From: a virus
Reading direction: 5' to 3' (one strand)
Virus record (IMG/VR): IMGVR_UViG_3300031576_000004
Coordinates: 99,303-163,302 of that record
Length of the DNA: 64,000 nucleotides
A program made the position numbers and the translations under genes. A model generated the notes under the pieces. It did no database searches. It saw only the letters and a program-made list of their open reading frames with translations, and was not told the origin of the DNA. Of the stretch, positions 5,257-17,803 are shown in pieces. Position 1 is the stretch's first letter. Every line of letters begins with the position of its first letter.

Positions 5257-5680
5257 TGGTGACGTGAGAGTACAACAATCATTTGGGACTGCCTTTGCAA
5301 GCATTCCTGCATTCCAAGAACTGAAAAGGAAGCAGGAAGAGTTCACCAAAGACAGCATCAAAAAGGAACAAGCGGCTGCCCTGGCGCATGTCGAATCCAT
5401 GCGTCAGGAGCGGCTCTCAAAAAAGAACGCAGCTCTTCACAGAGTTCGCGTAGCTTCTATCGACCAGAATATCGAGAACATCAATCCAAACAACTCAACC
5501 GCTCTAGACAACGCGGCAAATCACCTCCTAAGAAGGGGTAGCGTTTGGATCCATGAAGGCTATATCGGCTCCAATCGGGAGCAGATTGCCTTCGAGCTTG
5601 AGATGCAGCTTGTCGGGGTATTGCTCGATGAGCACGAGCTCGAAAACAGAATGAAGCTCCGCTGTGAAGCGGAATTCTAG
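5240..5680 (+). CDS. hypothetical coiled-coil protein
   Basis: ORF in operon; start uncertain. Confidence 0.65.
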   Translation: MRGGGNGDVRVQQSFGTAFASIPAFQELKRKQEEFTKDSIKKEQAAALAHVESMRQERLSKKNAALHRVRVASIDQNIENINPNNSTALDNAANHLLRRGSVWIHEGYIGSNREQIAFELEMQLVGVLLDEHELENRMKLRCEAEF

Positions 5681-5692
5681 TTAGGCGTTGGA

Positions 5693-5732
5693 CAGAGGGA
5701 GTTTTGGCCGGCAACGGCCGAGACTCCCTCTG
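5693..5732 (+). terminator. 18-bp GCAA-loop hairpin between convergent genes
   Basis: CAGAGGGAGTTTTGGCCG-GCAA-CGGCCGAGACTCCCTCTG; no adjacent U-tract. Confidence 0.6.
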
Positions 5733-5756
5733 CGGGCCGAGGCATTTATTTAGCTA

Positions 5757-6119
5757 TTAAAGTATTTGAGTCTTAGCCTTCTCTAGAGATACCCAGGATC
5801 TACGCGCCTCAAAGTGGTTCTTTAGGGTCTCGTAATGCGTCCTGGCTCCAAGTTCAGCCCCAACAGCATCTGCATACACCTTTATATATTCGCCATACTC
5901 TTTAGAGGCTAAAGCCTCTCTCTCTATCCTGGACTCTGTGACCTTCGTCCCAGTGGTCTCGTAGGTGGCCGAAATCGTGTTCATAAGCTTCGCTAGCATG
6001 GTCTTCCGACCTTCCTCTAGCCTGGTAGACAATTGCTTCACCTTGGCCCATTCCTGACCCGCCTTCTCCTGCTCAGCGATGATGTCTTCCAGGAACCTAA
6101 GGTCTATTTCGACTTCCAT
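5757..6119 (-). CDS. helical phage protein, possibly UvsY-like
   Basis: 120-aa all-helical ORF; family resemblance judged by eye only. Confidence 0.55.
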   Translation of the reverse strand: MEVEIDLRFLEDIIAEQEKAGQEWAKVKQLSTRLEEGRKTMLAKLMNTISATYETTGTKVTESRIEREALASKEYGEYIKVYADAVGAELGARTHYETLKNHFEARRSWVSLEKAKTQIL

Positions 6120-6130
6120 GTAGACCCCCT

Positions 6131-6174
6131 AAAACAAAGTGGCGACCGAGAGCATGATAGCCCTCGATCGCCAC
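6131..6174 (-). terminator. intrinsic terminator of the adhesin operon
   Basis: Minus RNA GUGGCGAUCGAGGGC-UAUCAU-GCUCUCGGUCGCCAC followed by UUUGUUUU. Confidence 0.8.
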
Positions 6175-6199
6175 ATTTACAACACTTACTTTACTTATT

Positions 6200-7294
6200 C
6201 TATTCTTCGCGGATATTATGAATGTTGTCTACGTGCATGATCCCGTCCCCAGTACCCTTCATCGTGAACTCCTGCCTGTACCCGAGATCATCCGTGGATT
6301 TGAGAGCAACAACCCTCGTGGCAGTGTAGGTGTTATCAACATACAAATCCTGCACACCGGTTAGAGGATAGTGTTCAACATGGACCTTGTGTTGTCCGGC
6401 TGGCAAGGCAATCGGATCGGGAGTCCAGCCACGGATTCCACGGATGGCCACGACTGGCGGTGCACCAAACAGATTTACCCCAGCCCCACCATTCCAAAGA
6501 TCCGTGATCTCTGTGTTAGACAGAACCCGCTTCCATATGAAGACTTCGTCGATTTTACCTTCGAAAGTAAGCCCGGCTGGACCCACGAGACCATTAAAAT
6601 TGCCGCAGCAGTTGTGGTCGTAATAGTCACCGATGGCGATTTCGCCAAGCTGTTGATAAGATGGGCCATCAAAGCCCTCATCGGAACCAAAGTCCATAAG
6701 AGAATAGACGGTGTGGTTCACATCCCCATCAACAACCAAGTTGCCCTTAATCCCGCTCAGGGGGCCATCCGTGTTGTAATCGTAAGTGACTACGATGTGA
6801 TGATAATTACCGTCCCCAAGGGCGAATGAGCTCACGTCAAAACCGATAAATGTGGCCGGGCCGTTGGTCACCTGCAGCACGAGAGTGCTACCCTGCAAGC
6901 TAATAAGCGCACCACTGCTGCCGGTATTCAAATCGCCGATAGACCACATAACCCCATAACTTTGCGGGGATGGGACTGTTGCTGGATTCACCCAAGCTGA
7001 GATTGACCAAGTCTCCCCGAGATAAGAATTTCCGAACTCAAGATCAGTGCGCTCGATACCGCCCCAATAGAGTCCGTAATGGCCACCCGGAGCTGTGTGG
7101 GTAATGTCACCCGTGACGGCAACAGCACCAGGACCAGTCCCGATCCCAGTGCCGAACTTGCCAACTACTCCATGGGAAGCCCCAACGTTAGTAAGTTCGA
7201 AATCCCCTGAAGTCGGAACCCCTGCAACAGAGGCAAAGTTCCCGGTCAGTTCATTAAACTTCCATCCTGCGATAATATCATCGGTAAGAGCCAT
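6200..7294 (-). CDS. LamG/ConA-like lectin virion protein plus 82-aa C-terminal module
   Basis: WSISAWV, YHHIVVTYD and FEGKIDEVFIWKRVLS LamG motifs; C-terminal 82 aa shared with 7634-9880. Confidence 0.85.
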   Translation of the reverse strand: MALTDDIIAGWKFNELTGNFASVAGVPTSGDFELTNVGASHGVVGKFGTGIGTGPGAVAVTGDITHTAPGGHYGLYWGGIERTDLEFGNSYLGETWSISAWVNPATVPSPQSYGVMWSIGDLNTGSSGALISLQGSTLVLQVTNGPATFIGFDVSSFALGDGNYHHIVVTYDYNTDGPLSGIKGNLVVDGDVNHTVYSLMDFGSDEGFDGPSYQQLGEIAIGDYYDHNCCGNFNGLVGPAGLTFEGKIDEVFIWKRVLSNTEITDLWNGGAGVNLFGAPPVVAIRGIRGWTPDPIALPAGQHKVHVEHYPLTGVQDLYVDNTYTATRVVALKSTDDLGYRQEFTMKGTGDGIMHVDNIHNIREE

Positions 7295-7329
7295 TTATAG
7301 TCCTCCCATGTCTTGTGTATTGATAGGGA

Positions 7330-7608
7330 TTAAGCCGTCTTCTTGAGCCACTTCATGTTCGCGTTAACTGAGCCCGGATGGAACGTGTGGTTACCTTCCG
7401 TGTAAGTCTTCAGCTTGGCTTTAGCCGCGACACCTGTGAGTAGCGTCTTGCTTGCAGCAATCAATGTAGTTATCTGAGTCGCATCGAAATCACCACGGAC
7501 AACTCCAAGAGCGCCAGCAAGATTCTTTCTAACGACGCGATAATTAGGGGCTGTGCTTACATTAACGTCCGGCGTGTCTCCCGAAAATGCAAGTTCTACG
7601 TAGAGCAT
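7330..7608 (-). CDS. small LamG-associated protein (paralog of 11070-11327)
   Basis: GDTPDV.VS.APNY...GDFDA.QI..LIAA.KTLLT shared. Confidence 0.8.
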   Translation of the reverse strand: MLYVELAFSGDTPDVNVSTAPNYRVVRKNLAGALGVVRGDFDATQITTLIAASKTLLTGVAAKAKLKTYTEGNHTFHPGSVNANMKWLKKTA

Positions 7609-7633
7609 TATTTAAACTCCTTTAGTTTTGAGC

Positions 7634-9880
7634 TTACTCTTCTCTAACCATATGGATGTTATCAGTATGCATGACACCGTTACCAGTGCCAGCCCTCGTA
7701 AACTCCTGGCGATAGCTCAGGTCATCCGTGGACTTGAGGACTACGATCCTAGTAGCCACGAACACGTTATCCACGTAGAGATCCTGGATGCCAGTAAGCG
7801 GCTGGTGATCAACATGGACCTTGTGCTGGCCTGTGGAGAGGATGATAGGATCAGGCGACCACCCACGAATACCACGAATAGCCGTTACCACATAGGTGAA
7901 TCCGTTCACCAAAGTACCAAACTGAGTATCCGGATTCGTCACACGCACGTTTACGGGACCAACCCCTTGAGCTGGTGTATCACAGAAAATCGTATTTCCA
8001 TCACCAAAGACGACATTGTCTGCCGGTGTGCTTCCGAAAAGAACTGTGCACCCAGACTGGAAATTACCAGGGTTACCATAGATCGTAACAGAAGTTCCTC
8101 CTGCTGTATCTCCAGTGTTCGGCACAACAAGCTGTGGATTAGGAGCCGGGAATGTATAAGTATAACCGTTAACAAGAGTCCCAGACTGCCCGTCAGAGTT
8201 GGTGACAACTACGTTTACCTGACCAGCCGCATGTAGAGGAGCATCGCAGGTTAGCGACCCCTCATTGAGAACCACCACATTTGTCGCAGGTGTTCCACCA
8301 AAGGAAACAGTTGGGGTCGTAAACGTCTGGAAGAATCCAGTCGGGGAATTGATAATAACCCCGAAGTGGAAGTGAGTACCATTAAGCGTTACAGGAGTAC
8401 CGCCAGAGTTTATACCTGTAGCGGGGAATGCAACCGTGACGGTGGGTGCAGCATGGTAAGCAAACACATTGGACGGAGCATTACTACCCTGACCATCTGG
8501 ATTCTGAACGAACAGGTTTACCAGACCGTCAGAGGTTGTTCCGCCTGGGCTCGGCGGCATAACCCCGGTCAGAGTCGTCGAGCTTTGAAATACTAAGCTC
8601 TGGACGTTAACCCCGTTTACTGTCGCAAAGCAACCAGACTGGAATCCGGTACCAGAAATCGTGACAGCCGTTCCGCCGACAGATGGCCCGTAGGCTGGCG
8701 AAATTGGAGCTGGGGTGTTTACCGTCGGAGCCGCATTATAAGTGTAACCGTTAATAAGCGAACCAAACTGGCTGTCTGGATTTGCTACGTTTATGGTAGC
8801 CAAACCAGATGCGTGAGCTGGCATGTTGCAAGTTATTGTGTTTGCATCCACGACGACCACGTTCGTCGCCTCTGTCCCAGGGGGCGCGAAGAATGGCTCG
8901 TCTGCGCCAATCGCAGGGGAAGACAAGCGAACATCGCCATCCATATCCTCTGTCAAACCAGCAATAGCCACACCAGCACCTATAGCTGGAGATCCTGCCA
9001 TCAAGTGCGGATTAGCAAAGCTAGTCAGCAAAGGATCCGCTGTAAACGAATTAGCTTCCTTACCTACTGCCTGGAAATCTGCAAGTGTCACATAGGCAGT
9101 TGGAGGGTCTACGTTGTGGAAGAGTTTAGCATATTGAAGAACTGGAATATTAAAAGTCAAGTTATTGGAAGCACTAAAGTTATCTGCAAGTCCAGTAGGA
9201 GTATTAGCAGAAAGAACATATATAGCGCGGTGACTAGAGTTAGAAACGATAGTGTGATAGATATTGTCCTTAAACATAGTCTTCCAAGCGTTCTCAACGC
9301 TTGAGCTTAGAACGCCAGCATAGTTCCTGACCGTGTTGCCGAAGGCTTTGAAGTTCAATACCGACACGAACGCAACGTCGCCCTCAGAAACGACCCTAGG
9401 ACGGATATAGCAGTTCCTGACTATGATTGGCTCTGTGTTAAAGTCTACACCTTCCATCGCATAGAACGCATAATGCCCGCCGTTAGTCACTACCTCCATC
9501 TGCTCGAAGATAACGTGTCTTAATAGATTAAACCCGCCCTGGAAGGAAGGAAGGGACGGATTACAGTTCTTAGTATTGAACCACTTAATTGTGACCCTGG
9601 CCGTGGAAGAGCCAATGACTCCTATGCCATTGACATTCTGGCCATCAAGAATAGAACGATTGGCATTGCTTTGCCCTCGAACTGTAAGCCTGAAAGCACC
9701 GGTATTAATTCCACCAAAAAACATAACTTCAACATTAGAGCCTGCCTGAGAAAACGTCTCACCACCGTTACAAACGATTTCCCAGTCCTCAGTGAATGGG
9801 GTGTGGTTCAGAACCAAATCAGCGATAGCTGCCTGAATGGTTGTGAACGGCTTATCTGAACCTACCAGCGACATTCCCAT
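7634..9880 (-). CDS. beta-helix (pectin-lyase-like) + half IPT + three IPT/TIG domains + 82-aa C-terminal module
   Basis: TTIQAAI start, beta-helix ending SPAIGAG..DGD.R...IGADE; IPT repeats P.SG...GGT.VTI.G..F...VTNPDGQ. Confidence 0.88.
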   Translation of the reverse strand: MGMSLVGSDKPFTTIQAAIADLVLNHTPFTEDWEIVCNGGETFSQAGSNVEVMFFGGINTGAFRLTVRGQSNANRSILDGQNVNGIGVIGSSTARVTIKWFNTKNCNPSLPSFQGGFNLLRHVIFEQMEVVTNGGHYAFYAMEGVDFNTEPIIVRNCYIRPRVVSEGDVAFVSVLNFKAFGNTVRNYAGVLSSSVENAWKTMFKDNIYHTIVSNSSHRAIYVLSANTPTGLADNFSASNNLTFNIPVLQYAKLFHNVDPPTAYVTLADFQAVGKEANSFTADPLLTSFANPHLMAGSPAIGAGVAIAGLTEDMDGDVRLSSPAIGADEPFFAPPGTEATNVVVVDANTITCNMPAHASGLATINVANPDSQFGSLINGYTYNAAPTVNTPAPISPAYGPSVGGTAVTISGTGFQSGCFATVNGVNVQSLVFQSSTTLTGVMPPSPGGTTSDGLVNLFVQNPDGQGSNAPSNVFAYHAAPTVTVAFPATGINSGGTPVTLNGTHFHFGVIINSPTGFFQTFTTPTVSFGGTPATNVVVLNEGSLTCDAPLHAAGQVNVVVTNSDGQSGTLVNGYTYTFPAPNPQLVVPNTGDTAGGTSVTIYGNPGNFQSGCTVLFGSTPADNVVFGDGNTIFCDTPAQGVGPVNVRVTNPDTQFGTLVNGFTYVVTAIRGIRGWSPDPIILSTGQHKVHVDHQPLTGIQDLYVDNVFVATRIVVLKSTDDLSYRQEFTRAGTGNGVMHTDNIHMVREE

Positions 9881-9915
9881 TTTCTATTCCTCCGTATTTC
9901 TTACGTTAAATTTAA

Positions 9916-10200
9916 TTAAGGAGCAGGAAGTGGCGCTGGCGGCGGTTGTGGCCGATCCGCAACATTTACGGACAACAGTGCCCCAGTCGTGGCCGCTGAA
10001 TCAATCGCCTTGATAAGCCCCATAAGATCATTAGCATCCTGTGACCCGAGAGTAATGTCTGGACGGTTAATCAAATCAAACAATACCTTCTCATTAACAG
10101 AAAACGATTCCTGAGCCCTCATGGCCACTGTCTTTCTGCAGTTAGCATGGGAGTTAGGAAACCAAGGCCCGGCAATCTTCGCAACCAATAGATAAGCCAT
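9916..10200 (-). CDS. small hypothetical protein preceding the beta-helix gene
   Basis: RBS GGAGAG; in operon. Confidence 0.7.
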   Translation of the reverse strand: MAYLLVAKIAGPWFPNSHANCRKTVAMRAQESFSVNEKVLFDLINRPDITLGSQDANDLMGLIKAIDSAATTGALLSVNVADRPQPPPAPLPAP

Positions 10201-10240
10201 TTACTTCTCTCCTTGTATTATCGTATTATCGTGCTGTCTT

Positions 10241-11053
10241 TTAGGCTACGAAAACCCTAGCCCCAGCAGCGAAGTTAGCTCCAGCAATTGTTACAGGAGT
10301 CCCACCAGCTACAGGGCCGGAAACCGGGACGATAGTGGCCAACGAAGGAGCTGGAGCAAGAGCCCACAGATTCGTCCCGGCCCCACCGTTCCACAGTCCT
10401 GCTCGTTCCGTTGAAGTAATAACTCTATCCCATGTTATCATCTCATCAATAACCCCATTGAAGAATGCCGAAGCCGCGTAGCTTGATCTGCCTACACGGA
10501 ATGGGGTCGTAAGAACAATCTCATCGATAAGCGATGTACTTACTCCGCTTCCAGCATCTTCCACATTGTCTACATACATTCTAAAACCGCCAGCAACACC
10601 AGCGATGAACGTGATAACTCCAAGGTGGAAGACATTGTCATTGACGGTGGCAGTCGATCCATGGATTAATACTTGATTCGCGCCTTTCTGGAAAACTGTC
10701 CGCAGGACGCCAGTATAAACAGACGCCTGGAACATGCTATCAACCGGAACGCCGAGAGGGTTCCTCTTGGAGAATATCATATCCTCAAAGAATGGATTGC
10801 TTGGTGATGCCGTTTTGAACCAAAAAGAAATAGAGAAGTTCTTCCCAATAGGGATATTCAGATTCGGCGAGCTAGCATTATCTATTGCGGCAAAGCTAGT
10901 AGAGCCATTGAATAAAGCCCCATACCCAACTTTCCCTGCCGCCTGATAGCCAACAGAAGTTGGGACAAGCGCGTGTGCTGCTACCTTTGATATAAAGTTG
11001 CCGGAAGCCTCGTCGAGCTTCCAGGCATCTATGATGTTGTCTGTAATCGGCAT
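10241..11053 (-). CDS. LamG-like lectin ending in the first half of an IPT/TIG domain
   Basis: FSISFWFK and FNGVIDEM LamG motifs; ends PVSGPVAGGTPVTIAGANFAAGARVFVA-stop. Confidence 0.87.
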   Translation of the reverse strand: MPITDNIIDAWKLDEASGNFISKVAAHALVPTSVGYQAAGKVGYGALFNGSTSFAAIDNASSPNLNIPIGKNFSISFWFKTASPSNPFFEDMIFSKRNPLGVPVDSMFQASVYTGVLRTVFQKGANQVLIHGSTATVNDNVFHLGVITFIAGVAGGFRMYVDNVEDAGSGVSTSLIDEIVLTTPFRVGRSSYAASAFFNGVIDEMITWDRVITSTERAGLWNGGAGTNLWALAPAPSLATIVPVSGPVAGGTPVTIAGANFAAGARVFVA

Positions 11054-11069
11054 TTTATGCTCCCGTTTA

Positions 11070-11327
11070 TTAGATGCCAGTGATCATAGTCGGGTAGGCG
11101 GCAACCCAAGCATCACCCCAAGCCCTGGCTTGCGCGGTAGCTTGCGCTGCGGTCAGCAGCGTCTTCGGGGCTGCGATTAACGCATTGATCTGAGCAGCGT
11201 CAAAGTCACCGGACACGACCTTCTCTGTCCCGTCAACTTTTGCCGCCCCAACGGTATAATTTGGAGCCGCCGATACATCGACATCCGGCGTATCCCCAGT
11301 AAAGTTTAGCACTGTGAAGATTGACAT
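11070..11327 (-). CDS. small LamG-associated protein
   Basis: Paralog of 7330-7608 and, more distantly, 41894-42148. Confidence 0.8.
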   Translation of the reverse strand: MSIFTVLNFTGDTPDVDVSAAPNYTVGAAKVDGTEKVVSGDFDAAQINALIAAPKTLLTAAQATAQARAWGDAWVAAYPTMITGI

Positions 11328-11338
11328 TGAATTTTCTC

Positions 11339-11962
11339 CTAGGAAGGTGACCCGTCAGAGATGACCAATGCAGCTCCGAATCCGGCAGGAGCGGAGCCGA
11401 CGGAGACCACCAACTCCACACCACTCGGAGCAGCGGGAATGTTGATATTGGTCCCGAACTCCACCCTCTTGATAACGGATTGCTTGATAGCCGTGCACTG
11501 ATGCTCCCAGGAAACCTGAGAGCCAAGGGCAGCGTTGAGAGTAGCCTTGAGAGACTTGGCCCCAATAGCCGTGGTGCCGCCGTCAGAGGCGACGACCAGC
11601 GTCCCGCCCGCAGTGTCCATCGCATTGGCAAACCCGGCCTGGAGAGGAGTCTGACCGACGGTTGCAGTCTCCATATCCACCAGACCAGTTGTCACGTTGT
11701 GCGTTTCGATTGGGTACTGAGGGAACGTCTCGTGACGGGCAACGCCACCGTTGCCATTAATGGCAGCCTGAGCATTCGCAATGCCCTGAGATGTCGTGTT
11801 TGCTGGAAGGTTTACTTCAACAGCGACCAGCTTTCCGTTGACGTCACGGATAATAGTGGAAGCGTTGTTTGGGTGCGCAGCATTAACAGCATTTTGGATC
11901 GCGGTCAGCGTTAAATCGCTTGCCTGAGCCCCAGGATCACAGATTATATTAATCTTCGGCAT
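11339..11962 (-). CDS. anchor domain plus C-terminally truncated beta-sandwich (paralog of 12139-13038)
   Basis: AAHPN..IRDVNGK...VNLP N-domain shared; stops about 90 aa earlier than the paralog. Confidence 0.85.
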   Translation of the reverse strand: MPKINIICDPGAQASDLTLTAIQNAVNAAHPNNASTIIRDVNGKLVAVEVNLPANTTSQGIANAQAAINGNGGVARHETFPQYPIETHNVTTGLVDMETATVGQTPLQAGFANAMDTAGGTLVVASDGGTTAIGAKSLKATLNAALGSQVSWEHQCTAIKQSVIKRVEFGTNINIPAAPSGVELVVSVGSAPAGFGAALVISDGSPS

Positions 11963-11982
11963 TGTCTACTCCCCTTTCTTTT

Positions 11983-12017
11983 AAAGAAAATGTGGGCGAT
12001 GTCAATATCGCCCACAT
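11983..12017 (-). terminator. intrinsic terminator
   Basis: ATGTGGGCGAT-6nt-ATCGCCCACAT hairpin followed on the minus strand by TTTCTTT. Confidence 0.7.
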
Positions 12018-12138
12018 ACTTAACACACTATTTATGTAATGTTGTGTAGTTATTGTTTGTCTTTGCATTTTATAATACGTTTATTACAAGTTCCGGCCGA
12101 GCCATGAACGCGTCTCCTAAATTCTGGCTAACTGCAGC

Positions 12139-13038
12139 CTAAGCAATACGATCCATGATCAGGTTGTCGATGTAGCTCCTCCCAGCCCCAGAAGTTCCGC
12201 TTGGGTAACGCGTGCGAGAGACATACTCCCAGATCGTTCTTGGGCTCAGTGCTCCCATGACAGTTTCCTTCAGAACGCCATCAACCCAGAGAGCGTATGT
12301 TCCAGTCATGAGATCACAATCCATATACGCTGTGTGATGCGCGCCAGCAGACATAGTATATAACGCGGAAGGCGTCCCATCCGGCGTAGTTAGATACACT
12401 CCACGGCCTACTGGAGCAGTCGGCGCGAAACCAACAGGGTAATCATGGAATGTAAGACGCATAGCACCATCCCTATCTCCAACTTCAAGTTCATTTCCGC
12501 TCTCGCTTCCAAGAGCTGGCCAGAAAACACTGTAGCCAATCCTCAGGCGCTTGAATGGCGAAGGTGTCGGAACAAAGGTGCACATCCAGCCATTGCCATC
12601 ATCCGGAGCAGAGACACAGAACTGTTCCAAGCACTTCGTTCCGGTAGCCGGATGATCTAAAGAAACCGTGTTAGAAATCGAAGCTGGGCCACCCTGAGGG
12701 CTAACTACTAGTCCCTGAGTAAGGCCCCAATCGTAAACCTCTTGAGCTAAAGGCGCGCCTTCGAAACCAGTATCTGCGAATAGGGGTACCGGCATGAACG
12801 AGGCCGATGCAGTAGCCACACCAGGATTGGCATTAATCGCAGCGGCAGCAACATCCAGATTCCCCTGTGATACGCCGAACGGAAGATTGACCTTCACCTC
12901 CACAACCTTGCCATTCACGTCACGAATGACTTCGGCGGCAAAGTTAGGATGCGCTGCGGCGGCCGCGGCCCGCACCTCATTGAGTGTCTTCTCGCTAGAC
13001 TGAGAATACGGATCAATCGGGACGTTAATAGATGGCAT
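12139..13038 (-). CDS. anchor domain plus complete ConA/CBM-like beta-sandwich
   Basis: GFE...YALWVDG...YIDNL pattern typical of lectin-like sandwiches. Confidence 0.82.
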   Translation of the reverse strand: MPSINVPIDPYSQSSEKTLNEVRAAAAAAHPNFAAEVIRDVNGKVVEVKVNLPFGVSQGNLDVAAAAINANPGVATASASFMPVPLFADTGFEGAPLAQEVYDWGLTQGLVVSPQGGPASISNTVSLDHPATGTKCLEQFCVSAPDDGNGWMCTFVPTPSPFKRLRIGYSVFWPALGSESGNELEVGDRDGAMRLTFHDYPVGFAPTAPVGRGVYLTTPDGTPSALYTMSAGAHHTAYMDCDLMTGTYALWVDGVLKETVMGALSPRTIWEYVSRTRYPSGTSGAGRSYIDNLIMDRIA

Positions 13039-13053
13039 TCTTTTTCTCCTTTT

Positions 13054-13428
13054 CTACTTTGCTAAGTTGTAATTAACTACTAGCGTATTACCGAGCTGAT
13101 TCGTAAGGATTGTAATGACTTTGCCGCCGGAAACAAAAGAGTAATCCGTGTTCAATGTTAATAGTGCTGTGGCGGCTGGAGCGCCGGTCGCAGTAACGAA
13201 AGCCATTATAGAGTTGATTGACGCCGCATTTGTCTGAAGAGTAAGCGTCCCGCTGACATTGACTCCGGCGAATGTCTCTTGGCAATCTATTAGTAGCGTC
13301 TTCCGATAAGATCTGACGGCAACTGTTTCGACATCTTCTACTACGGCAGCCATTTCATGTCTTCCGACTTTATCGTCAACATCTCTAAGAGCTCCCTTGT
13401 TGTCGAAGTAATATGCTTTGTCTTTCAT
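13054..13428 (-). CDS. putative virion structural protein
   Basis: Beta-rich, LTLNTDY motif; in structural operon. Confidence 0.7.
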   Translation of the reverse strand: MKDKAYYFDNKGALRDVDDKVGRHEMAAVVEDVETVAVRSYRKTLLIDCQETFAGVNVSGTLTLQTNAASINSIMAFVTATGAPAATALLTLNTDYSFVSGGKVITILTNQLGNTLVVNYNLAK

Positions 13429-13448
13429 TTGCCTATATCTCCGTTAAA

Positions 13449-14033
13449 TTAAACAAAGTTTATTTGAGCCGTGTCAACAACAGCAAGGCCAGATGGCGTC
13501 GGGGCGCTAAGTGTTAATGTCACCATCTGCACGACCGAGTCTTTGACTTGAACCGTTGCCTCGCCATTGGTGAATGTTACTGGCTGAGAAGTCACAATCA
13601 CTGCGCTTCCGCTAACAGAGACAGTTACCATGCTTGTATTGTTAAATGGATTTGTCACTCCAAATCCATTCGCAACCCTAACAACGACCGGCGTCAGCGT
13701 GGACCCGTCTGCTGTCCCAGAGAACGGGGAGCCATTCTCGAATAGGACTTGCGCGTCAGTTGATACAATGTAATTCAGAAGCTCGTTAAACTCGGCCTGT
13801 GTTACAGGAGAGTCTGAGTCTTGAGAGAAGCTTATGATCTGGAGTTTGCCAGCTGTAACGAGACGTTGAATTTCTTCGCTGGATGCATATGTATCCGGAA
13901 TTGTTCCGGTGTCTCCCGCAGTCCCAAATGGATTTAATTTTCTCTGAACATCCGGAGTTCCAAGCGGAGCCCCAGCTGCACGTCGTTCGATAAGAACGAT
14001 CTTTCCTGCTGTTAAGTTTTTTACTGTTGCCAT
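13449..14033 (-). CDS. virion decoration protein, shared N-terminal anchor + Ig-like domain
   Basis: VKNLT...SEEIQRLVTAGKL anchor; ADG..TV.V...TF.NG.A Ig-like segment. Confidence 0.75.
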   Translation of the reverse strand: MATVKNLTAGKIVLIERRAAGAPLGTPDVQRKLNPFGTAGDTGTIPDTYASSEEIQRLVTAGKLQIISFSQDSDSPVTQAEFNELLNYIVSTDAQVLFENGSPFSGTADGSTLTPVVVRVANGFGVTNPFNNTSMVTVSVSGSAVIVTSQPVTFTNGEATVQVKDSVVQMVTLTLSAPTPSGLAVVDTAQINFV

Positions 14034-14042
14034 TTTTACTCC

Positions 14043-14537
14043 TTAGGCGATAACGGTATAGCTAAACACTTCAGCGCCAGCCGCCATGCCTGGGGTTGAC
14101 ACAGCAAAGCTAACCCCAGGAACTATGCCGCCAATGCCGGCGAACGCTCCAGGAGGAGTCGAAAGAAGAATGGCCGCAGAAGCGTTCTGCGCAAACAGGA
14201 AGATCTTTGATCCTGCAGCGATGTTAGCCGCTGGGACAACAGACACGGGACCTGGTGTAGCCATAAAAGAACCGCGGATAACAGCCCTGTTAAATTCGTC
14301 CTGGCCGAAATCGCTGTCAGCGGCTGTGCTGTAAGAAAGGATTGCTAGCTTGCCTGCGGTTACAAGATTGGTGATCTCTGTTGAGCGGGCGAAGGAGTCC
14401 GGAATCGTTCCAGTATCTCCTGGCGCTCCAAAAGCAGTAAGCCGAACTTCAACATCAGGAGTTCCAACTGGAGATCCTAGCGGCCTACGCTCGATTAAAG
14501 CCAATGTGCCAGTGGTCAGGTTCTGTACGCTTGCCAT
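14043..14537 (-). CDS. virion decoration protein (paralog of 13449-14033)
   Basis: Shared ~85-aa N-terminus. Confidence 0.75.
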   Translation of the reverse strand: MASVQNLTTGTLALIERRPLGSPVGTPDVEVRLTAFGAPGDTGTIPDSFARSTEITNLVTAGKLAILSYSTAADSDFGQDEFNRAVIRGSFMATPGPVSVVPAANIAAGSKIFLFAQNASAAILLSTPPGAFAGIGGIVPGVSFAVSTPGMAAGAEVFSYTVIA

Positions 14538-14588
14538 TTAAATCCTCCCTTAAGAAAGAAGTTTATTTTCTGGCTTTTGCCAGACAAC

Positions 14589-14617
14589 AATATACCGGAC
14601 GCTTCAGTTTGACGCAA
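14589..14617 (-). promoter_or_regulatory. possible sigma70-like promoter TTGCGT-N17-TATATT
   Basis: Consensus-like elements with 17-nt spacer upstream of 14537. Confidence 0.35.
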
Positions 14618-14822
14618 CACCATTCTCCCTGCTAGGAACATCGTCTTCTATGAAAGCCGTGTCTACATAACGAATAATGACGTTAGCCTCGCCGCGGTTG
14701 GTGTGGAATACCTCTTCTTTAAGTATTTTAATAGATGGGTCGTTTACGAGCTTTTCGTACTCGGCTCTGCCAAGGGATGAATCCAGGGACAGCTTTATGA
14801 TCGACTTTTTCCCAATCATCAT
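14604..14822 (-). CDS. hypothetical protein
   Basis: ATGA-coupled to the glycosyltransferase. Confidence 0.65.
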   Translation of the reverse strand: MMIGKKSIIKLSLDSSLGRAEYEKLVNDPSIKILKEEVFHTNRGEANVIIRYVDTAFIEDDVPSRENGVASN

Positions 14823-17803
14823 GTTGTCGTCTCCAGGAATTCCTTTTGGCCAGAGGTCTCAGCATTATAGATGAGAGTGGGCACCATCGTTAGGGCTACC
14901 TTCTCGTTCTTCCACCTGGAGACCATTTCAAAATCATGCGCGTAGCCAACTTCAGTGCGATTCTTCCACCATCCATATTTCTCTATTAGACTCTTCTTAT
15001 GAAGCACCTCTGATGTATCCACCTGGAACTTCTCTGGGGCAGTACAGAACCTAGGCTTGCCATCTACAAGCATGGATGATAATGCGTAGCTTGCTCCCTC
15101 AAATTTCATCTTATCGTGTAGGCATGATAAATGGTCCGACATAACCGTGTTATCGTCATCTACATACGCTATTAAGTTGGCTGACGACAACATGATCCCG
15201 TAATTCCTAGGAATAGCCCCGCCTGCTCCATGGTTATTGGGCAGGTTAAATATGCGGGCCTTTTCGCAGGCATAATCCTGTAATTCTGGACAATTGTCCC
15301 CAACAATAATTATCTCTTTGGAGAAATAGTCCTGCTCCAAGACGGACGCCACGGCCTTCCCTAGAAGCAGGTTCTTCACCCTCTTGTGAGTCGGGATAAT
15401 CACAGAGATCTTCGGGCCTAAATAGAACTCCTTGATCCGCGGATCTGATGGATGAGCATAATTAAGGATCGGATATTCCTTCAGGGTCTCCTCGAAGAGC
15501 TCGCTGTCCGTATCGAATTCCCCACCCAGCTCTCGGTATTGCGCTATGGATTTAATGCGCCTTGTTGCGTCGTGAAACCCCAGGTGGTGAGTTATTAAGG
15601 AATTCTTAAGTACTACGACTCTATTCGATCCGATAAGCTTCTCATGCACAGGGAAGACCCACCTGATATCAGGCTTGTTCCTGTGCATGAACGGCTTCGC
15701 AATATGCTCCTTGCCGTTTGTGTCCACAAGCTTCGCCAGGAAGATGTCGTATTCATCCTGATCAACGAGCTCCCAAATATTCTCCAGCGTGGACTTGTCG
15801 AGGCGCTCGTCCGGATCAAACATAATGATCCAATCACAGCTGAGCGCAAACTTGCCAATGGCATGATTTCTGGCTCTTGAAAAAGCTGTAAACTCATAGT
15901 CCTCTATGATGGCAACGCCATTATTTTTAGCCCATTCGACGGTGCCGTCTGTGGAGCCAGAATCCAATATCGATATATCATTAGTAATCCCTTTGAACTG
16001 TTCAACAAATCCTGGAAGCGCCTCGATCTCATCCTTTGTGATCGCAATGACCTTAATCTTTGGGTGCTTCCTGTGGAATGGAGCCCTGTTCTCCTCTAGG
16101 ATTTTGTTAATATCGAGATCGTTGGCTTTGAAGGTGGCGTGTCCCTCATGGTGGATCCACGCCCGCTCAACTATCTTGCAGATATACCCAGCCTTGCGAA
16201 CTCGAGCGCAGTAATCTGTGTCTTCAAAGTTAACGAACCTCGTGTCGAATCCTCCGAGCTTCTTGAACATGTCTGTCCTGGTCATCATGCAGACACCCAC
16301 TACAGAATCCACGACAAGGCTTCCATGCCTGAAAGCGTCTTCCTTCTGAACGTATCCCTGAGGGGGACAAGCATAGTTTGAGTACGGGCCAACAACCGCT
16401 GTTGCTTGGGAATCATTTAATCCAATAAGAAGCCTGTCTAGAACTCCAGGCTCTACGACTGTGTCGCTGTTAAGGAAACAGATATATGGCGACGTCACTT
16501 CCATCGCCGCCCTATTGCACCCAGCGGCATAGCCGATATTCGCCTCTAGGTTGATGACCTTGGTTGCCGGCCCTTCAACCGGAACTTTGGATCCGTTGTT
16601 AAGAAGGATAACTGGCAGCGTCGGGTAGTGCTTCTTAACTGATTCAAGGCACCGCTTCGTGAGCTCCGGGGTATTCCAATCAAGGACAACAATGGAGATA
16701 CATCCTTCCCGATGTCTCCTGTTATTGAATTCCTCAAACTCATGGCGGTAATTGTTGCGGCCAATCTCAAGGTTATCCTGAATCGCCTTATTCTTTGTAA
16801 ACGTTGTGTTCTGGAAGGCGTCTAGGAAGCGATAGAGGTATAGACATTTGTCCAGGTGGAAACACTTGGACCTAAGGAAAAAGCGAGCATAGAGGTCCCA
16901 ATCGTCTGCGATCGCTAATTGCGGATTGTACCCACCAAGCTCTCTGAATGTCTTAGCTCGGTAAGCTCTGATGTGGTTCGGCCCAACCGTCAGAAACCAA
17001 CCGAACTGCTTGTAGTACTCTGGGCCAAATCTGTCATAGATATTCGGATTAACAGCCTCCATATACTTCTTCCCGTTGTACTCAAACTCCCTATACCTTC
17101 CATCCTTAACCCACTCTGGGAAGGTGTGCGGGGAACCGTCCTGGAAGAAGCTGGCGCAGTTCGTATAAACCATCCCAGCTTCTGGATGCGATTTAAATGC
17201 CGCGGCGACATCATAGACCGCATCACGAGTAAGCATATCGTCATGATCCAACTCGATCAGGTAAACGCCTGTGCATAGGCGTGTGGCCATGTCCTTTAGT
17301 GCGCCAACCTTGCCTATGTGGTTAACCTTGATCGGCCTGACCCTGTGGTCAATTTTAGCGAACTCTAAGAGGCGCTCGTATGTCCCATCGGTAGATCCAT
17401 CGTCAACGACAACCCATTCCCAGTTCGGATACGTTTGATCTCTGAGAGAGTAGTAGGTGTCCAGGATCATGCCGCCAGTGTTAAATGTCGGCGTATAGAC
17501 CGAAACAAGCGGCTGAACATCATCTTCTTTTGGCGCTGTCCAAATATTGTTTATGTAAACGTTCTGGATCGATTGCGCCACAGCTTCTGGAGTGGCTTTA
17601 GGGTCGCTTACATTCATCCACTTTTTCCGCAGATCGTAGCCCGCTGCGTTGAGCTCACCAGGGAAGAATCCAGTGGTAACAATAACATCTGGCCTGAACC
17701 TGGCTATCGCAGGAAGCAGATCCTTAATGTCTGTTACTGTGCAGGATTCGGCAGGGACATCCCACTGCCGCAAGACAAACAGGACTCTTATTCCACTTAT
17801 CAT
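14819..17803 (-). CDS. multidomain glycosyltransferase with four GT2 (GT-A) domains
   Basis: Four GT-A units: VSVYTPTFN..DDGSTD..ELDHDD; ISIVVL..FLNSD; VIAITKDE..DSGSTD..FDPDE; ISVIIPT..YVDDD. Confidence 0.92.
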   Translation of the reverse strand: MISGIRVLFVLRQWDVPAESCTVTDIKDLLPAIARFRPDVIVTTGFFPGELNAAGYDLRKKWMNVSDPKATPEAVAQSIQNVYINNIWTAPKEDDVQPLVSVYTPTFNTGGMILDTYYSLRDQTYPNWEWVVVDDGSTDGTYERLLEFAKIDHRVRPIKVNHIGKVGALKDMATRLCTGVYLIELDHDDMLTRDAVYDVAAAFKSHPEAGMVYTNCASFFQDGSPHTFPEWVKDGRYREFEYNGKKYMEAVNPNIYDRFGPEYYKQFGWFLTVGPNHIRAYRAKTFRELGGYNPQLAIADDWDLYARFFLRSKCFHLDKCLYLYRFLDAFQNTTFTKNKAIQDNLEIGRNNYRHEFEEFNNRRHREGCISIVVLDWNTPELTKRCLESVKKHYPTLPVILLNNGSKVPVEGPATKVINLEANIGYAAGCNRAAMEVTSPYICFLNSDTVVEPGVLDRLLIGLNDSQATAVVGPYSNYACPPQGYVQKEDAFRHGSLVVDSVVGVCMMTRTDMFKKLGGFDTRFVNFEDTDYCARVRKAGYICKIVERAWIHHEGHATFKANDLDINKILEENRAPFHRKHPKIKVIAITKDEIEALPGFVEQFKGITNDISILDSGSTDGTVEWAKNNGVAIIEDYEFTAFSRARNHAIGKFALSCDWIIMFDPDERLDKSTLENIWELVDQDEYDIFLAKLVDTNGKEHIAKPFMHRNKPDIRWVFPVHEKLIGSNRVVVLKNSLITHHLGFHDATRRIKSIAQYRELGGEFDTDSELFEETLKEYPILNYAHPSDPRIKEFYLGPKISVIIPTHKRVKNLLLGKAVASVLEQDYFSKEIIIVGDNCPELQDYACEKARIFNLPNNHGAGGAIPRNYGIMLSSANLIAYVDDDNTVMSDHLSCLHDKMKFEGASYALSSMLVDGKPRFCTAPEKFQVDTSEVLHKKSLIEKYGWWKNRTEVGYAHDFEMVSRWKNEKVALTMVPTLIYNAETSGQKEFLETTT

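Follow-up and report, generated by a model that had tools for sequence, protein, structure and literature searches.

An IPT/TIG domain divided between two neighbouring genes of an uncultured phage and its possible re-association in trans

What becomes of a small folded domain when the gene that encodes it is broken within the domain, and can the two halves, made as separate chains, still form one fold? This question is raised by the 163-kb genome of an uncultured phage (IMG/VR record IMGVR_UViG_3300031576_000004), in which one IPT/TIG domain, of Ig-like type, is divided between two neighbouring genes of the same strand, p270 and p748. The window analysed here spans 64,000 nucleotides (positions 99,303 to 163,302 of the record); coordinates are those of the window, and all the features described lie on its minus strand. 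The explanation towards which the balance of probability tips, if slightly, is that a cassette inserted itself into an ancestral gene and left a gene in pieces, whose half-domains would re-associate non-covalently and thereby dock a LamG head on a stalk of IPT domains. This reading is built on sequence comparison, and it is weighed below against an insertion scar, restoration of the contiguous gene and an artefact of assembly.

One IPT domain in two genes

In p270 (270 aa; 10241–11053), a LamG/ConA-like lectin domain comes first, and the chain then breaks off halfway through an IPT domain, at a TAA stop codon. The lectin domain is recognised by the Laminin_G_3 profile (PF13385; 54.5 bits for a cut-off of 27.6) and has LamG relatives at 36–39% identity. 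In the AF2 model (pTM 0.70), it adopts a ConA-like lectin jelly roll, a similarity that holds at fold level only (Foldseek E about 1e-10, 10–17% identity). The model, obtained from a shallow alignment, is of moderate quality, and the IPT-half tail has a pLDDT of 40–60 in the monomer. p748 (748 aa; 7634–9880) comprises a β-rich N-terminal domain, the second half of the split domain (IPT1), three intact IPT/TIG domains (IPT2–4; 7886–8734), recognised both by Pfam (40.9, 44.8 and 42.1 bits) and by the genome search described below, and a C-terminal plug. According to the textbook Ig-like topology, the first half (38 aa; 10244–10357) would contain strands A–C and the second half (48 aa; 8735–8878) strands C'–G.

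An earlier note on this DNA had proposed, from reading of the sequence, that the LamG protein stops halfway through an IPT domain and that p748 carries the matching second half between its N-terminal domain and three whole IPTs. Searches with the Pfam TIG profile (PF01833; 84 positions, curated cut-off 20.9 bits) bear this out: residues 236–267 of p270 correspond to profile positions 1–35, and p748 contains four TIG stretches, the first of which is partial. When each half was scanned alone, both scored above the cut-off, the first (positions 1–36) with 27.7 bits, versus 24.4, 15.8 and 19.0 bits for the corresponding halves of IPT2–4, and the second (positions 38–84) with 27.5 bits, versus 16.3, 25.8 and 18.1 bits. 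A six-frame search of the whole 163 kb returned five TIG matches only, three whole and two partial (1–38 and 39–84), the p270 tail being the sole TIG first half in the genome. Decay is thus absent, both orphan halves being the best-scoring TIG halves of the genome.

The position of the cut was defined with a family profile built from seven intact IPTs. Taken separately, the halves scored 36.5 bits (first half, positions 1–36) and 62.8 bits; joined in silico, they covered profile positions 1–84 with zero gaps and 105.5 bits. The split is therefore seamless, and the alignment of the joined sequence places it exact to the residue (...ARVFVA / GTEATNVVVV...), at what should be the C–C' turn by textbook Ig-like strand order. 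Neither chain holds a continuous sandwich of about 84 residues and seven strands, since the division falls at TIG profile position 36–39.

In the Ig-like topology, the strand pairings B–E, C–F, A'–G and C–C' would all cross this cut, so that neither half should fold alone. This bears on the main rival explanation, which we consider rather unlikely: a cassette, or recombination, would have broken the gene and left a tolerated insertion scar, the halves never being one domain. p270 would then work alone, with a floppy tail of 38 aa, or not at all, and the 48-aa half-IPT would be a linker or have the N-terminal domain or IPT2 as its packing partner. The low confidence of the p270 tail in the model fits such a scar, but a split that is exact to the residue and leaves the two most canonical TIG halves of the genome does not. 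Moreover, by the same topology, half a sandwich would expose its hydrophobic core, and selection would be expected to have favoured an earlier stop codon.

The inserted cassette

The gapless alignment of the joined halves to the profile also sets the boundaries of the inserted cassette (8879–10243; 1,365 bp). It contains, in this order, a stop codon, a spacer bearing a ribosome-binding site (RBS), a gene for a 94-aa protein (p94; 9916–10200), an RBS and the N-terminal domain of p748 (about 334 aa; 8879–9880), whose reading frame continues into the second half of the IPT. Several further in-frame stops follow the TAA of p270, RBS–ATG signals flank the cassette, and Shine–Dalgarno sites are present at all three genes (p270, p94 and p748). 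We infer that the split arose through a single insertion, which is the economical origin because two independent truncations at one position are unlikely.

The placement of a 94-aa gene and a further domain between the halves, as given in the earlier note, holds, but the label of β-helix that it gave to this domain did not gain a database match: residues 1–334 of p748 match no Pfam family and no PDB sequence. The AF2 model of p748 is unusable (pLDDT 33). The domain does have weak matches (E 2e-4 and 5e-4) to two Beta_helix (PF13229) proteins, the basis of which is a common C-terminal motif (...GSPAIGAG...DGD...IGADE), and it is a putative right-handed β-helix. As for p94, whose C-terminus reads as Pro-rich, it has no Pfam or PHROG match, no homologue among 5.8 billion protein clusters searched by word index, no usable Atlas neighbour and no relation to p85/p92 or p124. 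Its orphan status is compatible with a scar; it also led us to reject a homing endonuclease inside the interruption. We also rejected the N-terminus of p748 and p94 as sources of the missing strands, since neither is TIG-like.

Could the contiguous LamG–IPTx4 gene be restored in part of the genomes or transcripts, the assembled sequence representing one state only? Whether the cassette were removed by programmed excision from the DNA, by splicing of the RNA, by bypass at the ribosome or by trans-splicing of the protein, the join would be seamless; the cassette length is a multiple of 3, and p270 and p748 share a reading frame. We nevertheless give this explanation very little credence. The earlier note had seen no direct repeats at the junctions, and we too found neither direct nor inverted repeats at the cassette ends, apart from a 5-nt coincidence (GACAG); with no recombinase in the operon either, a shufflon-like excision or inversion cassette was rejected. 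An intron was rejected since an Rfam scan of 5500–15000 at E≤1 detected no intron of group I or II and no further Rfam family in the cassette, its two matches being sub-threshold, unrelated and outside it. A split intein was also rejected: there is no intein or Hint match in Pfam, the end of p270 falls within the IPT, and the N-terminal domain precedes the second half. More generally, neither p94 nor the ends of the proteins contain an intein, Hint or recombinase domain. The 1.36 kb to be skipped far exceeds known bypassing, and excision would destroy the in-frame fusion of the cassette domain to the downstream IPT half, a fusion that is kept in the diverged relative described below. As a side observation, the longest repeats in the region stem from IPT paralogy.

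The junction in relatives

A diverged relative of p748, P0002 (739 aa; ENA), has the same architecture, starts at the same N-terminus and has kept the junction. Over the half-IPT, it shares 34 of 48 residues with p748 (71%, no gaps), a conservation on a par with that of the intact IPT2 (73%) and IPT3 (74%) and far above that of the N-terminal domain (30% in the core; 36% over the whole domain, with 43 gap columns), while IPT4 and the plug are 53% and 54% identical, respectively. These segment identities and the shared junction argue that the split is old and that the half-domain evolves as a folded domain, not as a linker. Decay of the halves in relatives, which according to the earlier note would indicate a non-functional relic, is thus not what the second half displays. 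A mere linker, as the scar explanation would have it, would not keep such gap-free identity beside so divergent a domain. On the other hand, mosaicism is pronounced among phage adhesin genes, and the jump in identity between P0002 and p748 near the junction, from about 30–36% to about 70%, is recombination-like. Mosaic recombination, and not stronger constraint, could be part of the reason why the IPT segment is so much more alike than the N-terminal domain. Searching for a LamG fragment of the P0002 contig returned the query alone.

P0002 also bears on the possibility of an assembly chimera or a sequencing error. The record is indeed a metagenome-assembled viral contig; however, P0002, with the same junction between N-terminal domain and half-IPT, comes from a separate source, which makes a chimera very unlikely indeed, and several in-frame stops after the TAA and proper RBS–ATG signals around the cassette speak against it as well.

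The earlier note had suggested looking for relatives with an uninterrupted LamG–IPTx4 gene; the uninterrupted IPTs that we found are in other arrangements. In L007, an intact IPT is directly followed by the plug, and this IPT is the nearest intact one to both halves (20 of 38 and 28 of 48 residues identical). In P0016 (LamG–LamG–IPT), the IPT is uninterrupted too. Note that an HNH gene adjoins the plug-bearing gene in L007 only.

The split layout itself was seen in two lineages only, those of p748 and P0002, and no further relative with it was found in IMG/VR, the JGI metagenomes, the GTDB genomes or cultured phages. More specifically, IMG/VR yielded nothing relevant with p270, p748, the p748–P0002 alignment, the p299–p207 alignment or three degenerate DNA motifs. 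Matches to the IPT motif (L016–L021), and also L005, were rejected as unrelated proteins with intact IPTs. In the JGI metagenomes, one protein scan was empty and the plug motif gave L007, besides a match rejected as chance (L008); both GTDB matches, out of frame, were likewise rejected as chance.

A proposed joint in trans and its genetic setting

According to the explanation that we favour, the ancestor would have been a virion adhesin gene encoding a LamG domain, four IPTs and a C-terminal plug. The cassette would have entered the first IPT at the presumed C–C' turn, bringing the stop codon, the orphan 94-aa gene and the β-rich domain in frame with what remained of the gene. Two polypeptides would then be made from one probable operon: p270, consisting of LamG and the first three strands, and p748, consisting of a new head, the last four strands, IPT2–4 and the plug. 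The half-domains would rejoin in trans, non-covalently, as a single Ig-like sandwich, so that the LamG head would be docked on the IPT stalk beside the β-rich head, giving a branched, two-headed receptor-binding appendage. Such a completion in trans, of the donor-strand type, is indirectly supported by the complementarity of the halves, conservation of the second one and the strand pairing expected across the cut.

Branched assemblies occur in phages CBA120 and G7C. To our knowledge, the branches described so far are attached through complete adaptor domains dedicated to docking, whereas the joint proposed here would be one ordinary domain shared out between the partners. The branched tail-fibre or tailspike assemblies of DT57C, with LtfA and LtfB (PMC4728585, PMC10713586), and of phiKp24 (PMC9700779) resemble the present case in their side-by-side receptor-binding protein genes, and in that the proteins hang on one another as a multi-headed adsorption device, an arrangement which here is our proposal.

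A precedent for a gene in pieces is nrdA of Aeromonas phage Aeh1, which is split by mobE into NrdA-a and NrdA-b, the products assembling without splicing (Crona et al. 2010, PMC3045599). In both cases, inserted DNA cuts a phage gene into two separately translated polypeptides; Aeh1 nrdA recovers its function by non-covalent assembly, without RNA or protein splicing or DNA rearrangement, whereas assembly is what we propose for p270 and p748. In Aeh1, the interrupting DNA can be identified as a homing endonuclease gene and brings no cargo, as opposed to an orphan ORF and a whole new domain in frame with the downstream piece, with no detectable endonuclease. Furthermore, the Aeh1 protein is an enzyme, and its element-derived tails are essential for activity and oligomer assembly (PMC3045599), unlike the present seamless cut in a small Ig-like domain of a putative structural adhesin.

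In chaperone–usher pili (e.g. FimA), donor-strand complementation also completes an Ig-like fold in trans (PMC6615685). The likeness would lie in an incomplete Ig-like fold that is completed by another chain within an extracellular adhesive fibre, through a link that in pilins is very stable and non-covalent. However, in pilins one donor strand completes the fold, which a neighbouring subunit lends through its N-terminal extension, and a chaperone and an usher are required, whereas here the cut is roughly 3 + 4 strands, both halves seem unable to fold by themselves, and chaperone or usher homologues are absent. Finally, fractured genes with split inteins (PMC2677866) similarly have an intervening ORF that interrupts the coding sequence, and their halves are made separately; unlike in those genes, there is neither an intein nor a Hint motif around the break in our case, and no covalent ligation is therefore expected.

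If the halves re-associate, they would form a split-Ig joint of natural origin; a limited literature search on split-domain joints in phage fibres returned no description of adhesins assembled in this way. By one insertion, the phage would have gained a second receptor-binding head while keeping the old one, and genes in pieces, exemplified by an enzyme in Aeh1 (NrdA), would come to include a structural component of the virion; with their 38 and 48 aa, the halves would also make a compact pair of evolved peptide tags that assemble by themselves. If, on the contrary, they stay apart, the locus would still represent a clean, datable case, within a host-range module, of a gene split in two by an inserted cassette.

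The earlier note had further placed the IPT-split block inside a second, outer split, and the alignments agree. p299 (12139–13038) is an unsplit paralogue with an N-terminal anchor and a whole C-terminal region; p207 (11339–11962), the "socket" side of the outer split, aligns over residues 1–207 with residues 1–224 of p299 (E 8e-24) and ends at about that position, and residues 203–297 of p299 align with the C-termini of p748 and p364. Correspondingly, the plug of p748 (about 84 aa; 7634–7885), delimited by BLASTP and alignment, is 75% identical to that of p364 and resembles the last third of p299. The outer junction has about 12 extra residues and is hence not seamless. p364 (6200–7294) contains a LamG domain (Pfam Laminin_G_3) and a plug, without IPT. 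Tentatively, and as a generalisation that we hold to be possible rather than probable, natural fragment complementation of small β-sandwich domains could serve as a modular joint in branched phage adhesins, much as the earlier note saw in the splits a repeatable way of adding a branch. A cassette made of a small ORF and a new head domain would land in a surface loop of a domain, the halves would re-form that domain in trans, and a branch would thereby be added to the appendage. At least two such events, one nested in the other, would have taken place here, the split of the IPT lying inside that between p207 and the plug; p364 would be a second head whose plug fits the shared socket.

The genes from p207 to p364 probably form one operon, bracketed by two strong terminator-like hairpins, one of 11 bp with a T-run between p299 and p207 (11990–12017) and one of 15 bp with a T-run after p364 (6139–6174). 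A tail-fibre gene of collagen-like type lies in the vicinity, as does a weak portal-like match, and from this context we infer that the putative adhesin would be located in the virion. Within the probable operon, the small proteins p85 (11070–11327), encoded ahead of p270, and p92 (7330–7608), encoded ahead of p364, are paralogues, with 53% identity over 68 aa (E 5e-21).

Division of an IPT domain between two neighboring genes

The LamG protein p270 (10241–11053, minus strand) and the IPT-array protein p748 (7634–9880, minus strand) each carry part of one IPT/TIG domain, referred to as IPT1. By Pfam, p270 displays a LamG match (54.5 bits) and, at its extreme C-terminus, a TIG (PF01833) match limited to profile positions 1–35, while p748 displays four TIG stretches. 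When each segment was scanned separately, the C-terminal 38 residues of p270 (first half; 10244–10357, minus strand) match TIG positions 1–36 with 27.7 bits, and residues 335–382 of p748 (second half; 8735–8878, minus strand) match positions 38–84 with 27.5 bits. When the whole genome was searched for TIG in six frames, there were five matches only, namely three whole domains and the partials at profile positions 1–38 and 39–84. Using seven intact IPTs (IPT2–4 of p748, IPT2–4 of its relative P0002 and the IPT of the related contig L007), we built a family profile, whose positions 1–84 are covered with zero gaps by the halves joined in silico (105.5 bits, versus 36.5 and 62.8 bits for the halves taken singly). 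The domain is thus divided between p270 and p748, as claimed in the earlier note, the cut lying between ...ARVFVA and GTEATNVVVV..., which by textbook Ig-like strand order should be the C–C' turn. The truncations are complementary, exact to the residue and located in adjacent same-strand genes; neither chance nor two separate events would be expected to produce them.

The halves are separated by a cassette of 1,365 bp (8879–10243, minus strand) comprising, in order, TAA, a spacer of 40 nt containing the Shine–Dalgarno motif AAGGAG, the 94-aa gene p94 (9916–10200, minus strand), a second spacer with GGAGG, and 334 codons that continue in frame into the second half. Its length is divisible by three; p270 and p748 share a frame, and p94 lies in another. 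No family was found for p94 in Pfam or PHROG, a word-index search covering 5.8 billion protein clusters detected no homologue, and p94 is unrelated to p85 (11070–11327, minus strand) and p92 (7330–7608, minus strand). The 334-residue N-terminal domain of p748 is beta-rich and shares its terminal motif, GSPAIGAG...DGD...IGADE, with proteins carrying Pfam Beta_helix; since this likeness is at motif level, with no match of the domain itself in Pfam or in a PDB sequence search, the beta-helix proposed earlier is kept here as probable. Its AF2 model was uninformative. Rfam gave no intron at the cassette, and domain searches gave no intein, endonuclease or recombinase. The reported absence of junction direct repeats holds: only a 5-nt coincidence, GACAG, was found at the cassette ends, its left copy lying immediately within the junction and its right copy immediately beyond it, probably by chance. 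The split very likely arose by cassette insertion, and the economical history would be one insertion event in an ancestral gene of the form LamG-IPTx4-plug, the plug being the C-terminal ~84 aa of p748 (7634–7885, minus strand).

Conservation of the split and its relatives

Two results argue against the halves being a decaying, non-functional remnant of the insertion. First, against Pfam TIG, both halves outscore the equivalent halves of IPT2–4 (27.7 versus 24.4, 15.8 and 19.0 bits for the first; 27.5 versus 16.3, 25.8 and 18.1 bits for the second). Second, P0002 (739 aa, ENA, 3.2-kb contig), the sole p748 relative that the word-index search recovered from the 5.8 billion protein clusters, retains p748's junction and a well-conserved half-IPT. 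Both proteins have the same N-terminal start and the same junction, GAD(E/Q)PFFxPxGxEATNVV, and their identity is 30% in the N-terminal core, 36% over the whole N-terminal domain (43 gap columns), 71% without gaps in the half-IPT, 73%, 74% and 53% in IPT2, IPT3 and IPT4, and 54% in the plug. The half-IPT substitutions are conservative without exception. The shared junction and these per-segment identities therefore indicate that the split predates the divergence of the two lineages. The decay in relatives that the earlier note had considered is not seen in the second half, the one compared in P0002: by identity it appears constrained as strongly as the best-kept whole domains, and an unstructured linker would not behave so. 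Module exchange could be the source of part of the contrast between the half-IPT and the N-terminal domain. Both halves are likely kept under selection.

Uninterrupted relatives, which the earlier note had suggested looking for, exist. The 1.7-kb JGI contig L007 contains a partial ORF in which an intact IPT (57.9 bits) is directly followed by the plug, and P0016, 36% identical to the LamG domain of p270, has a LamG-LamG-IPT architecture. Of the intact IPTs, that of L007 is the closest to both halves, with 20/38 identical residues in the first and 28/48 in the second, and in many larger proteins LamG passes straight into IPT arrays. No LamG fragment from P0002's contig was found on searching, and there were no further relatives in IMG/VR, JGI metagenomes, GTDB genomes or cultured phages.

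An HNH endonuclease gene (L007:704–1087, minus strand; Pfam, 24.1 bits) lies immediately 3' of the IPT-plug gene of L007 and could hint at a cassette mover in the module; no HNH gene was found in the window's operon. A C-terminal tail of ~30 aa (LRPPKY..NG.L.FAQR...Y) is conserved between P0016 and P0087, two LamG relatives of p270 that come from other sources; it may be another short docking peptide common to different heads. The best structural neighbors of the p270 LamG model are ConA-like lectin jelly rolls (10–17% identity), including clostridial neurotoxin receptor-binding domains and a trypanosomal sialidase lectin domain; this resemblance is generic, at fold level only, and would fit a carbohydrate- or receptor-binding head.

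Proposed assembly and known systems

Textbook Ig-like topology assigns strands A, B and C to the first half and C', E, F and G to the second, so that the pairings B–E, C–F, A'–G and C–C' would all cross the cut. Neither half should fold by itself, and the p270 tail has a pLDDT of 40–60 in a monomer model (shallow alignment). In the genome-wide TIG search, this tail is the only first half and the p748 segment the only second half. Because neither half should fold alone and each is unique in the genome, we infer that re-formation of one IPT in trans is the best reading, with a probability slightly better than even. LamG would then occupy the distal end of IPT1, with the beta-rich head placed at the C–C' turn, close to the IPT1–IPT2 junction, resulting in a two-headed stalk.

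The closest precedent for the split is nrdA of Aeh1, which mobE divides in two; the resulting pair of polypeptides assembles with no splicing (PMC3045599). For the proposed joining, the nearest parallel in mechanism is the donor-strand complementation by which incomplete Ig-like pilin folds are completed (PMC6615685). Branched phage fibers (PMC4728585, PMC10713586, PMC9700779), as far as is known, use complete adaptor domains. In contrast to these systems, the cut here is seamless and inside a small structural domain, the insert adds a new head to the downstream piece as a fusion, and no endonuclease could be detected. A limited literature search found no description of a split-domain joint in phage fibers.

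The outer split and gene order

The earlier note placed this block inside a second split. p207 (11339–11962, minus strand) aligns to residues 1–224 of p299 (12139–13038, minus strand; E 8e-24), and the final ~95 residues of p299 show similarity to the C-terminus of p748 (E 1e-3) and to that of p364 (6200–7294, minus strand; E 5e-3). These two C-termini share 75% identity. In a three-way alignment, the end of p207 meets the start of the plugs, with ~12 additional residues (VTAIRGIRGWSPDP) that unsplit p299 lacks (junction sites 7846–7888 and 11339–11345). The nesting thus stands at sequence level, but the outer split is less clean than the IPT cut because of these extra residues, which recall the element-derived tails of split Aeh1 NrdA and have no counterpart at the IPT cut.

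The window covers the final 64 kb of an IMG/VR phage record of 163 kb, whose completeness is estimated at 88%. Since the neighbors of these genes include genes for a collagen-like tail-fiber protein, a transglycosylase and a weak portal-like match, the p299–p364 region looks like a virion-structure region. Two strong terminator-like hairpins with T-runs on the minus strand (11990–12017, 11 bp stem; 6139–6174, 15 bp stem) enclose exactly seven genes, p207 to p364, and the whole nested set is probably a single transcription unit. Just upstream, p164 (14043–14537, minus strand) and p194 (13449–14033, minus strand) are 60% identical over their first 83 residues and then diverge, the C-terminal end of p194 matching the Ig-like Big_1 profile below threshold (23.8 bits; cut-off 34.9); they form another pair in which a common N-terminus precedes different heads.
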